NCBI GenBank assembly: GCA_040768985.1
Contig: JAXGLX010000002.1
Coordinates: 4,485,871 to 4,549,870, forward strand
DNA from: Acidobacteriota bacterium
GTDB lineage: Bacteria > Acidobacteriota > JAAYUB01
Reading direction: 5' to 3'
Length of the DNA stretch: 64,000 bases
Positions 8,685 through 9,464 of the stretch are shown in pieces. A program made the translations under genes and the position numbers. Under the pieces are notes generated by a model that was not told the DNA's origin, searched no databases, and was given only the letters and a program-made list of their open reading frames with translations. Every line of letters starts with the position of its first letter. Position 1 is the stretch's first letter.

Positions 8685-9464
8685 TCAGAGCAAATTCCGC
8701 GTCGAGCCCATCCGCATTTCGCTCAGGTTTTTCATCAGCGTGGAGAGCAGGTTGAACAATTGATTTGCCTTCTGGTCGAAATTCTCGACCGCGGTGGCGA
8801 CCGTCTGGCGTTCGTTGCGGGCCTGCTCCATCTGGGATTCCGCACCCCGGATCGCGTCCGACAATCCCCCCGATTCCGAATGCGCCGAGTCGGCGGCCGC
8901 CTGACCCGCGGCCCCGTGAAGGTGTTCCCGCACCGATTCGAAGGTGCCCCGCAGGAGGCCGTGGGTGCCGTCCAGCAGCTCGCGGCTCAGGCCCGAATCG
9001 GGCAGCCGGCCCAGGTGGTCGAAGAAGGAATCAAGCAAGCCGCCCACGGAGTCGGGCAGGGCCGTTTCTCGGCCGCTCCCTCCGGTGAGCGCCACGAGCT
9101 GCTGCAGCTCGGCGGTGCGGTCCTGCCAGAAGGCGGTTTCATGGCCGGTGGCCCGCAGCGTGGCGGGCAGGGCGGTCTGGAAGCCGGAAAGGGCTTCGGC
9201 GAAATCCGGTGGCAGGCCGGCGACGGCGTGGGTGGTAGCAAGCGGCGACGGGGCGGACGATTTCGCGGCGGAGAGAATATCCTGGATGATGCCGGGCGCG
9301 CCCGTCCCGGCGGGGGCGATGGCGTCAGCGAGTCCGGCCTGGTCCAGCGGCGGCGCGGAAGAGGCGGACTCGGGCGGTCGGGCCCCCTGGGCGGCGGTAT
9401 TCTGAAGCGGGTCCGGCGGCTCGTTGGCGGGGGACGAAAACCCGTCGTCCGAGATCTTGATCAT
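8685..9464 (-). CDS. Hypothetical protein: Pro/Ala/Ser-rich low-complexity N-terminal half, predicted helical C-terminal region; ATG at 9464 preferred over track GTG at 9473
   Basis: Track ORF 262 aa; GAGGTGA Shine-Dalgarno-like sequence 5 nt upstream of the ATG at 9464; no domain recognised by eye. Confidence 0.55.
   Translation of the reverse strand: MIKISDDGFSSPANEPPDPLQNTAAQGARPPESASSAPPLDQAGLADAIAPAGTGAPGIIQDILSAAKSSAPSPLATTHAVAGLPPDFAEALSGFQTALPATLRATGHETAFWQDRTAELQQLVALTGGSGRETALPDSVGGLLDSFFDHLGRLPDSGLSRELLDGTHGLLRGTFESVREHLHGAAGQAAADSAHSESGGLSDAIRGAESQMEQARNERQTVATAVENFDQKANQLFNLLSTLMKNLSEMRMGSTRNLL

Follow-up and report, generated by a model that had tools for sequence, protein, structure and literature searches.

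Tip, chaperone and translocator genes of type III secretion systems are organised in operons such as lcrV-lcrH-yopB-yopD, and the flagellar type III apparatus also exports non-flagellar cargo, including FlaC and FspA of Campylobacter and MakA of Vibrio. The needle, tip and translocon are the type III parts that resist sequence-based classification. Their proteins have been unplaceable, with similarity that is low or undetectable (Abby & Rocha 2012, PMC3459982). Here we describe a gene in a 64,000-nucleotide stretch of an Acidobacteriota genome (contig JAXGLX010000002.1, positions 4,485,871 to 4,549,870; hereafter the window, or 64-kb window), whose product ends in a conserved helix of about 60 residues. 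This tail belongs to a large, undescribed family of strictly C-terminal modules, and the window gene is a lineage-specific member of it. From the profile comparisons we regard the step from the window protein to the family as solid, and the step from the family to the C-terminal helix of the needle subunit SctF as suggestive. The reading that we tentatively favour is that the window protein is driven by sigma-28 and exported by type III (flagellar-type) secretion, and that it carries a needle- or tip-like docking helix.

The C-terminal module and its gene

The family was delineated by a profile search of 1.84 billion cluster representatives (clusters at 50% identity), run from the window clade, in which 443 representatives match at E<=1e-3 and 215 at E<=1e-10. 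They come from bacteria and a few archaea, and nearly all of the 443 matches are confined to profile positions ~195-259 and lie at the matched protein's own C-terminus. Reciprocally, the open reading frame (ORF) in the window matches a hidden Markov model (HMM) of 114 diverse C-termini with 100.5 bits. Members range from 37 to 938 aa, and in 200 of 202 the module ends no more than 3 residues from the C-terminus. The module consensus is L..I...E...E.VRNKRQ...T.FENFDQKANQLFNLLS.V.K.M.EMR.G..RN.L, and the family signature is FxNFDQKANQLxNxLS...RNxL, with near-invariant R, F, N-F-D-Q-K, N-Q, L, K and R-N; the window protein has every one of these near-invariant residues but the first F, in whose place it has V226. 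How little besides the module can be common to two members is illustrated by P0005 (185 aa), the fifth match of our first homology search, which has only its last ~45 residues in common with the window protein. Only two members have the module internally. In one of them, P0103 (938 aa; residues 255-320 and following), an 'NEDKEYYLEKLEKYNKMGEQLSDYL' helix follows the module, an order opposite to that in the Myxococcota proteins described below.

No Pfam or NCBIfam model covers the module in any member scanned, and a literature search found no paper on the motif string or on the family. Some members carry the JGI label 'methyl-accepting chemotaxis protein', probably a coiled-coil artefact, as no domain of that kind was found in the members scanned; the other source names are 'hypothetical'. 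Scans of the window protein with Pfam and NCBIfam gave nothing above threshold, and neither did PADLOC, and PDB sequences yielded no significant match, whether the full-length alignment or the module profile served as query; across the Pfam, NCBIfam, PDB sequence and profile searches there was no clear match to a housekeeping family. We set aside weak matches to LXG, CT392, SpiroCoCo and KfrA, which look like coiled-coil noise (for LXG/WXG100, PF04740, the scores are 15.9-19.5 bits against a gathering threshold of 26.5, and the match is C-terminal, not N-terminal), as well as PDB matches to P450nor and G-alpha-13, which we attribute to chance. A preliminary description of the gene, made from the sequence alone, had called it an orphan with no recognisable domain. 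The latter statement holds insofar as no Pfam or NCBIfam model reaches threshold, but the tail belongs to a large unnamed family. The orphan status has to be given up, with the last ~60 residues in a family of 443 representatives and at least five full-length relatives in metagenome-assembled genomes (MAGs) of Acidobacteriota, found by the first homology search together with the profile search.

The gene runs on the minus strand from an ATG at 9464 to a stop codon at 8685-8687 and encodes 259 aa. A GTG at 9473 is a second possible start, less likely than the ATG because GAGGTGA lies 5 nt before the ATG and the orthologues begin at the same ATG. The gene and the parts of its product are as follows.

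8685-9464, minus strand: coding sequence, 259 aa plus stop; from the ORF translation, with orthologues at 62-81% identity and a ratio of nonsynonymous to synonymous substitution rates (dN/dS) of 0.37-0.47
9470-9476, minus strand: ribosome-binding site GAGGTGA, 5 nt before the ATG; read from the sequence and kept in orthologues
9291-9464, minus strand: residues 1-58, Pro/Ala/Ser-rich N-terminus predicted to be disordered from composition, AlphaFold2 confidence (pLDDT) <50 and lack of secondary structure; dN/dS 0.7-1.1
8880-9290, minus strand: residues 59-195, helical middle part, predicted by AlphaFold2 at low confidence; dN/dS ~0.33-0.41, lineage-restricted
8688-8879, minus strand: residues 196-259, conserved C-terminal coiled-coil module (L..I...E...E..RN.RQ...T..ENFDQKANQLFNLLS.....K...EMR.G..RN.L); family HMM E 6.4e-30

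In this region the G+C content is 65-74%, and the opposite strand has a 256-aa shadow ORF; at 70% G+C and with such a shadow, the length of the ORF is by itself weak evidence for a gene. The gene is nevertheless real, because the dN/dS between orthologues is 0.37-0.47 and the tail matches the family HMM at E 6e-30. Four full-length homologues in Acidobacteriota MAGs have 62-81% identity to the window protein. The overall dN/dS comes from comparison of the window gene with two orthologues, and by region it is ~0.7-1.1 in codons 1-60 and 0.16-0.41 in the remainder. One might still suppose that the ORF is no functional gene, and that it arose by chance in GC-rich DNA or is the decaying passenger of a repeat-flanked element. 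The shadow ORF, the neutral evolution of the N-terminal 60 codons and the movement of the surrounding cassette between genomes (see below) would all fit such a view. It is scarcely credible, however, and is already contradicted by the conservation data: dN/dS is low over residues 61-259, the frame is intact and the length identical in at least five genomes, the tail matches the family HMM, and both the ribosome-binding site and the promoter-like motif are conserved. The preliminary description had likewise argued for a real gene with a strong ribosome-binding site, and on checking its coordinates for the gene and its quotation of the C-terminal sequence both proved correct.

The window protein has three parts: a disordered N-terminus, a helical middle and a C-terminal helix of 60-65 aa. 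AlphaFold2 predicts residues 1-58 to be disordered, followed by several helices and one long helix at 201-258, in a poor model built on a shallow alignment whose mean pLDDT of 46.6 makes it unfit for fold search. Residues 1-100 are 55% Pro, Ala, Ser and Gly (15 P, 21 A, 11 S), in agreement with the low-complexity N-terminal half noticed at the outset, and this half is probably disordered. The absence of a signal peptide, also noticed then, is borne out: by inspection the first 70 residues contain neither a hydrophobic signal-peptide stretch nor a twin-arginine motif. The N-terminus has no double-glycine leader, and no GG cleavage site precedes the module. Residues 1-58 are a candidate type III export signal region. 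In the middle part, helices are predicted at low confidence at 59-69, 86-105, 110-128, 139-152 and 161-192, and this part is common only to P0001-P0004 and P0006, from a few Acidobacteriota MAGs. The tail, which the preliminary description had seen as an amphipathic helix for interaction or export, is indeed predicted to be helical, and its role probably does concern interaction or export. It is a heptad coiled coil, though, and not a membrane-type amphipathic helix: one heptad register runs through it without a break, and 13 of the 17 a/d positions are hydrophobic. The tail is best explained as a single continuous coiled-coil helix of eight heptads that would form the functional core of the window protein.

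Needle-subunit resemblance and type III neighbours

When the module was compared with needle (SctF) alignments by HHalign, the P values were 6.5e-4 and 1e-3, against 0.25-0.32 for reversed controls, and the alignment reached to 1-2 residues from both C-termini. The final ~27 module residues pair with the polymerisation helix that ends SctF, equally far from the C-terminus in both, and N59, S62, D70 and I75, which are invariant in needle subunits (PrgI numbering), coincide with N, S, E and T/V/I that are conserved in the module (the PrgI and YscF sequences used are identical to PDB 2lpz and 2p58). With an SctF HMM, 37 of 202 members score at least 10 bits and 70 of 202 at least 8 bits, whereas the maxima are 7.5 bits for reversed and 7.0 bits for tail-shuffled controls; 161 of the members' best alignments are in exactly the same register to the C-terminus. 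The Pfam needle model T3SS_needle_F (PF09392) is the second commonest sub-threshold match, found in 10 of 58 members with a best single E of 6.8e-4, and the best member reaches 20.2 bits against a gathering threshold of 29.4. A PDB chain with an SsaG-type needle tail is among the top PDB matches of the module profile.

In Myxococcota, module genes are clearly associated with type III chaperone and translocator-like genes. In 13 of 13 Myxococcota/Bdellovibrionota loci a conserved gene set comes after the member, with a SycD/LcrH-type chaperone gene, which encodes a TPR protein, in the next position and a translocator-like gene behind it. At locus L019 this neighbour, a tandem TPR protein, matches TIGR02552 (LcrH_SycD) at E 2.4e-40 and 137 bits (cut-off 104.8), and the chaperone gene is followed by one for a 683-aa coiled-coil protein with one strong transmembrane segment and a weak match to SseC (E 6e-4). 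Gene order and topology resemble those of the lcrV-lcrH-yopB-yopD type of operon. The conserved, operon-like gene set occurs in Myxococcota/Bdellovibrionota MAGs at L016, L018-L027, L029, L030 and L032; at L019 (9152-17870) the order is the module protein, with tip-like topology, the tandem SycD/LcrH chaperone, the 683-aa transmembrane protein, and then proteins of 293, 769 and 375 aa without a known domain. Within 10 kb there is no core gene of a type III system. L030 has a second LcrH-like chaperone (93.9 bits, below the 104.8 cut-off), and near it is a 449-aa 'MSSLTGGG...' protein whose C-terminus (…SNISKMLHDTAMAIIRKIGA) scores 23.8 bits with the module HMM and a weak 7.3 bits with the SctF HMM. 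This 449-aa protein may be an evolutionary bridge between the module and SctF. The stretches concerned are L030 15034-17814 and L039 10191-12491, and a relative lies directly downstream of the Chloroflexia member.

The Myxococcota/Bdellovibrionota members themselves are 300-460 aa long, begin with 'MSSxGGG' and have a central 'FRESIxxTNEDKKYFLxKLQEYNxMAE' helix. AlphaFold2 models the Myxococcota type (pLDDT 77.7) as an N-domain, a 55-residue helix, a beta-hairpin and a 61-residue C-terminal helix. Fold searches return generic coiled coils only, with IpaD at rank 18 and E 0.27. A reading as pore-forming toxins of the ClyA/MakB type was rejected, the beta-hairpin being polar and not hydrophobic, and an apparently conserved 'TGTGTAGAT' element upstream of Myxococcota members was dropped, as it matches exactly upstream of the member gene in just two loci.

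These results bear on the rather unlikely, though serious, alternative that the module is a generic self-associating coiled coil of secreted or surface proteins with no tie to type III secretion. Its likeness to SctF would then be convergence of long polar coiled coils, and the window protein would homo-oligomerise. The continuous heptad register and the outcome of the fold searches are what one might expect of such a coil, and most member genes stand alone without conserved neighbours. On the other hand, the surface positions N, D, Q, K, N, Q, S, K, E, R and N are at least 90% conserved across phyla, more than one would normally see in a plain oligomerisation coil. Only the forward sequence gives the SctF signal, which keeps its exact C-terminal register in 161 alignments, and an LcrH/SycD chaperone gene is strictly adjacent in all 13 of the Myxococcota loci. 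The sigma-28 box upstream of Acidobacteriota members, to which we turn below, is likewise not foreseen by a generic coil.

Putative promoter, export routes and an apparently relocatable cassette

Two promoter-like elements precede the window gene.

9495-9502, minus strand: GCCGATAA, exact sigma-28 (FliA-type) -10 consensus, 31 nt upstream of the ATG
9518-9521, minus strand: GCAA, a possible -35-like element 15 nt upstream of the -10 box, with the spacing of TAAA-N15-GCCGATAA

Sigma-28 promoters have the octamer GCCGATAA as their -10 consensus (PMC12784957). The octamer occurs once in the window, both strands counted, where ~0.8 occurrences would be expected by chance. GCAA-N15-GCCGATAA also lies upstream of the close orthologues L005-8, L013, L014 and L047 and of L017, a distant Acidobacteria member with a different N-terminal part, and ACAA-N15-GCCGATAA lies upstream of the remote full-length relative P0006/L045; the pattern [G/A]CAA-N15-GCCGATAA is conserved in three divergent Acidobacteriota subgroups. 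Members of other phyla have no CCGATA[AT] within 300 nt upstream. At L009, a degenerate ACAA-N15-TCCGAGAA with six of eight -10 box positions is seen at ~9950-9990, upstream of the 160-aa member P0156. Scans for sigma-70 promoters and terminators were uninformative. From the conserved box we infer that the window gene uses a sigma-28 promoter.

A sigma-28 promoter could also belong to a cytoplasmic regulator of the sigma-28 regulon, namely an anti-sigma factor of the FlgM/RsiG type that is autoregulated from its own promoter and binds sigma through its C-terminal helix. The conserved -10 box would suit such a regulator, and a disordered N-terminal half with a helical C-terminus is also found in FlgM. 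The E-x3-E-x2-R-x3-Q-x3-T spacing, moreover, recalls the c-di-GMP-binding motif of RsiG (anti-sigma-WhiG), although no sequence-level match to RsiG was found; in the window protein these residues lie on one helix face at 209-224 (nt ~8793-8840; module positions 16-31). However, neither FlgM (PF04316) nor any anti-sigma model was hit in Pfam or NCBIfam at E<=10, and PDB sequence searches gave no match to FlgM or RsiG even at E<=10. The window protein is 2.5 times as long as FlgM, and the module is also carried by proteins with Sec or GG leaders and by proteins of archaea, organisms that lack sigma factors. With no sequence support and with the module in exported proteins and archaea, we set this very unlikely idea aside.

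The leaders found on relatives speak to where the module works. A heuristic classification of the N-termini of ~158 members gave 35 with a Sec-type signal peptide or N-terminal transmembrane segment, 12 with a double-glycine leader, 18 of the Myxococcota type and 87 with no recognised leader, and the N-terminal domains among members include CARDB, PAN, LysM, TIG, collagen and transglutaminase. Because Sec and double-glycine/NHLP leaders and adhesin-type domains precede the module in relatives, the module, as judged from these architectures, is one that acts outside the cytoplasm in many lineages. Some members have 'MARIKIxDLP...GG' double-glycine leaders and are sited in tandem arrays of GG-leader peptides. 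At L043 (144-1006) and L044 (81-1020) such arrays consist of three to four small genes with a common 'M(A/T)RI(K/Q)I(x)DLP...GG' leader and unrelated cargo peptides, of which the module is one, and the cargo encoded at L043 419-697 resembles a degenerate copy of the module.

It is here that another view has to be considered, that the module is a secreted bioactive peptide (a bacteriocin-like toxin, signal or decoy) and the larger proteins are its carriers or precursors. Such a peptide would account for the NHLP-type and double-glycine precursors in which only the last 34-40 module residues are the cargo, or core peptide, for their place in tandem GG-leader arrays, and for members such as P0018 that consist of a signal peptide and the module only. 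We consider it improbable. The helix is hydrophobic only at a/d and is neither cationic nor membrane-amphipathic, and bacteriocins are not typically conserved so strongly across phyla. In the window protein, neither a leader nor a cleavage motif precedes the module, and there is no adjacent transporter or immunity gene.

In a scan of one genome per species, 30 loci were found, all in MAGs, with hosts in Acidobacteriota, Myxococcota, Bdellovibrionales, Spirochaetales, Planctomycetota, Chloroflexia and others, in addition to the archaea Nitrosarchaeum and Methanoregula. Most member genes match the GC content of their host. Two are of low GC content, L001 5292-5849 (0.32 against 0.49 in the surroundings) and L042 9692-10135 (0.36 against 0.50), which suggests recent horizontal acquisition. 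The L001 gene lies 3.4 kb downstream of a radical SAM/SPASM gene. A tblastn search of phage and plasmid collections with the module gave no match, and thus no evidence that the module is phage- or plasmid-borne.

We can now return to type III export with a docking helix, the reading that we tentatively favour. The window gene would be transcribed as a late gene from its sigma-28 (FliA-type) promoter. Its product might then leave the cell through a type III (flagellar-type) apparatus by way of the disordered N-terminus, without a Sec, Tat or GG leader, and once exported the C-terminal helix could dock on a helical partner or oligomerise with it, packing as a coiled coil in the manner of needle and tip proteins. 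Both the export route and the docking function are inferred. Several observations count against this. Archaeal MAGs (Nitrosarchaeum, Methanoregula) also have members, and other members carry Sec or GG leaders; the module therefore cannot depend on type III secretion in general, and a generic coil, as discussed above, would have no difficulty with such members. The window protein alone scores 1.6 bits with the SctF HMM, the same as its reversed sequence, and has no match to PF09392 in the Pfam scan; since it does not score by itself, the needle link rests on profiles. All SctF scores are below curated thresholds, as are all Pfam and NCBIfam matches to the window protein or the module, and this sub-threshold similarity, absent for the window protein itself, is again what a generic coil would predict. 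The -35-like element is GCAA rather than TAAA. Lastly, no flagellar, injectisome or secretion gene was seen in the 64-kb window or beside any Acidobacteriota member.

The surroundings of the gene are of interest in their own right. Its neighbours in the window encode PEP carboxykinase, a Cys-rich ORF, DRTGG/HATPase proteins and a hydrogenase-like operon, and it is bracketed by two repeat arrays.

8249-8650, no strand assigned: downstream flank, ~3.4 copies of a modular ~119-nt low-complexity unit with CGATTA/CGATCA hexamers and CGAGCCT and CCATCAA heptamers
9613-9820, no strand assigned: upstream flank, ~1.7 copies of the ~119-nt unit in the same orientation; a 58-nt core at 9746-9803 is 90% identical to 8593-8650

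Since the units have the same orientation on both sides, the gene is bracketed by direct repeats and forms, together with its promoter, a cassette of ~1.2 kb. Repeats flanking the gene had been noticed in the preliminary description; they are real and occur, within the window, only around this gene. An Rfam scan of the flanks found nothing. Orthologues are flanked by the same ~119-nt repeats (in L005 at 9676-9890 and 10800-11150, and also in L008, L013 and L014). Window positions 2-7255 match L005 7254-1 at 92% identity, and the hydrogenase/Nuo-like operon of L005, L013 and L014 has the 1.25-kb cassette at its opposite end. In L008 an IS110 transposase is upstream of the cassette, and in L047 the gene follows a fucosidase gene. 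The cassette is thus found in at least four different genomic contexts, among related genomes that are 92% identical in the neighbouring operon. To judge from these contexts it appears to be relocatable, or to have relocated, perhaps by recombination between the repeat arrays. Window positions 7255-8540 have no counterpart in L005, L013 or L014 and may be an insertion adjoining the cassette. This segment includes a minus-strand ORF at 7284-7877 (197 aa, Cys-rich with several CxxC pairs, of lower GC content) that has no Pfam or PADLOC match. Further away, at 19665-30341 on the plus strand, the window encodes a giant protein of 3558 aa with seven Big_3_5 repeats and DUF11, CARDB and LDL-receptor class B repeats, which looks like a surface adhesin.

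It is tempting to go one step further, although we regard what follows as a long shot. The tail of ~35-60 residues might be a portable 'needle-end' helix that has spread horizontally in bacteria and archaea and is delivered by three routes at the least, namely Sec, double-glycine/NHLP-PCAT and type III export. Once outside the cell it could self-assemble into a filament or cap, an extracellular coiled-coil structure of a kind not recognised before, on which variable N-terminal domains are displayed. Alternatively it could serve as a decoy, docking on the injectisome needles of predatory Myxococcota and Bdellovibrionota and blocking them. The decoy variant builds on the fact that the predators' own tip-like proteins have the same helix. 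The window gene would then be a sigma-28-timed, repeat-flanked, relocatable cassette of such a system.

Comparison with described secretion systems

Among type III parts that are hard to classify, a conserved module of ~60 residues without a Pfam or NCBIfam model now marks tip-like proteins in poorly understood Myxococcota/Bdellovibrionota systems. Besides its in-register resemblance to the needle helix, the same module is found in archaea and on proteins, hundreds of them, that are exported through Sec or by means of a leader. Should the type III relation be true, the module would help to find extracellular proteins related to type III systems in uncultured phyla, and would raise the question of what role a needle-type helix has in organisms without injectisomes. 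For the organism of the window, the prediction is a sigma-28-dependent secreted protein.

The four kinds of known system that come closest each share part of this picture. In the case of SctF (MxiH/PrgI/YscF; PF09392), the family profile matches in register, at P ~1e-3, the C-terminal helix that in needle subunits carries the N..S.......D....I pattern to the C-terminus; the window sequence alone gives no such match. Unlike SctF, which is ~80 aa long (needle subunits are ~70-90 aa), module proteins are 37-938 aa, and they have no N-terminal helix with a PxxP turn; the module is predicted to be one helix of ~60 residues, and no PxxP is adjacent to the tail at 201-258 in the window protein. Many members, in addition, use Sec or double-glycine export, and the window gene is outside any secretion cluster.

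The precursors with NHLP-type or double-glycine leaders (NHase_alpha-type and Bacteriocin_IIc-type GG leaders) are a further comparison. Part of the family consists of precursors of this kind, whose cargo is either the module or just its last 34-40 residues; the window protein differs in lacking a leader or a GG site before the module.

As to the tip and filament proteins SctA (LcrV/PcrV, IpaD/SipD/BipD; EspA/SseB), the Myxococcota/Bdellovibrionota members occupy the position of a tip gene, before SycD/LcrH and translocator-like genes, and the predicted topology of the Myxococcota type, with an N-domain, a long helix, a small distal beta element and a long C-terminal helix, is similar too. They have no sequence match or significant fold match to any solved tip protein, however, and the window protein is without the N-domain, the 'NEDKKYFL' helix, the beta-hairpin and the chaperone and translocator neighbours.

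The fourth comparison is with sigma-28-dependent cargo of the flagellar type III apparatus, FlgM and others. In sequence the window protein shows no similarity to FlgM or the non-flagellar cargo proteins. It resembles them in that its gene stands alone and has an exact sigma-28 -10 box, plausibly spaced from the start codon, and in that the protein begins with a disordered N-terminus that carries no Sec signal.

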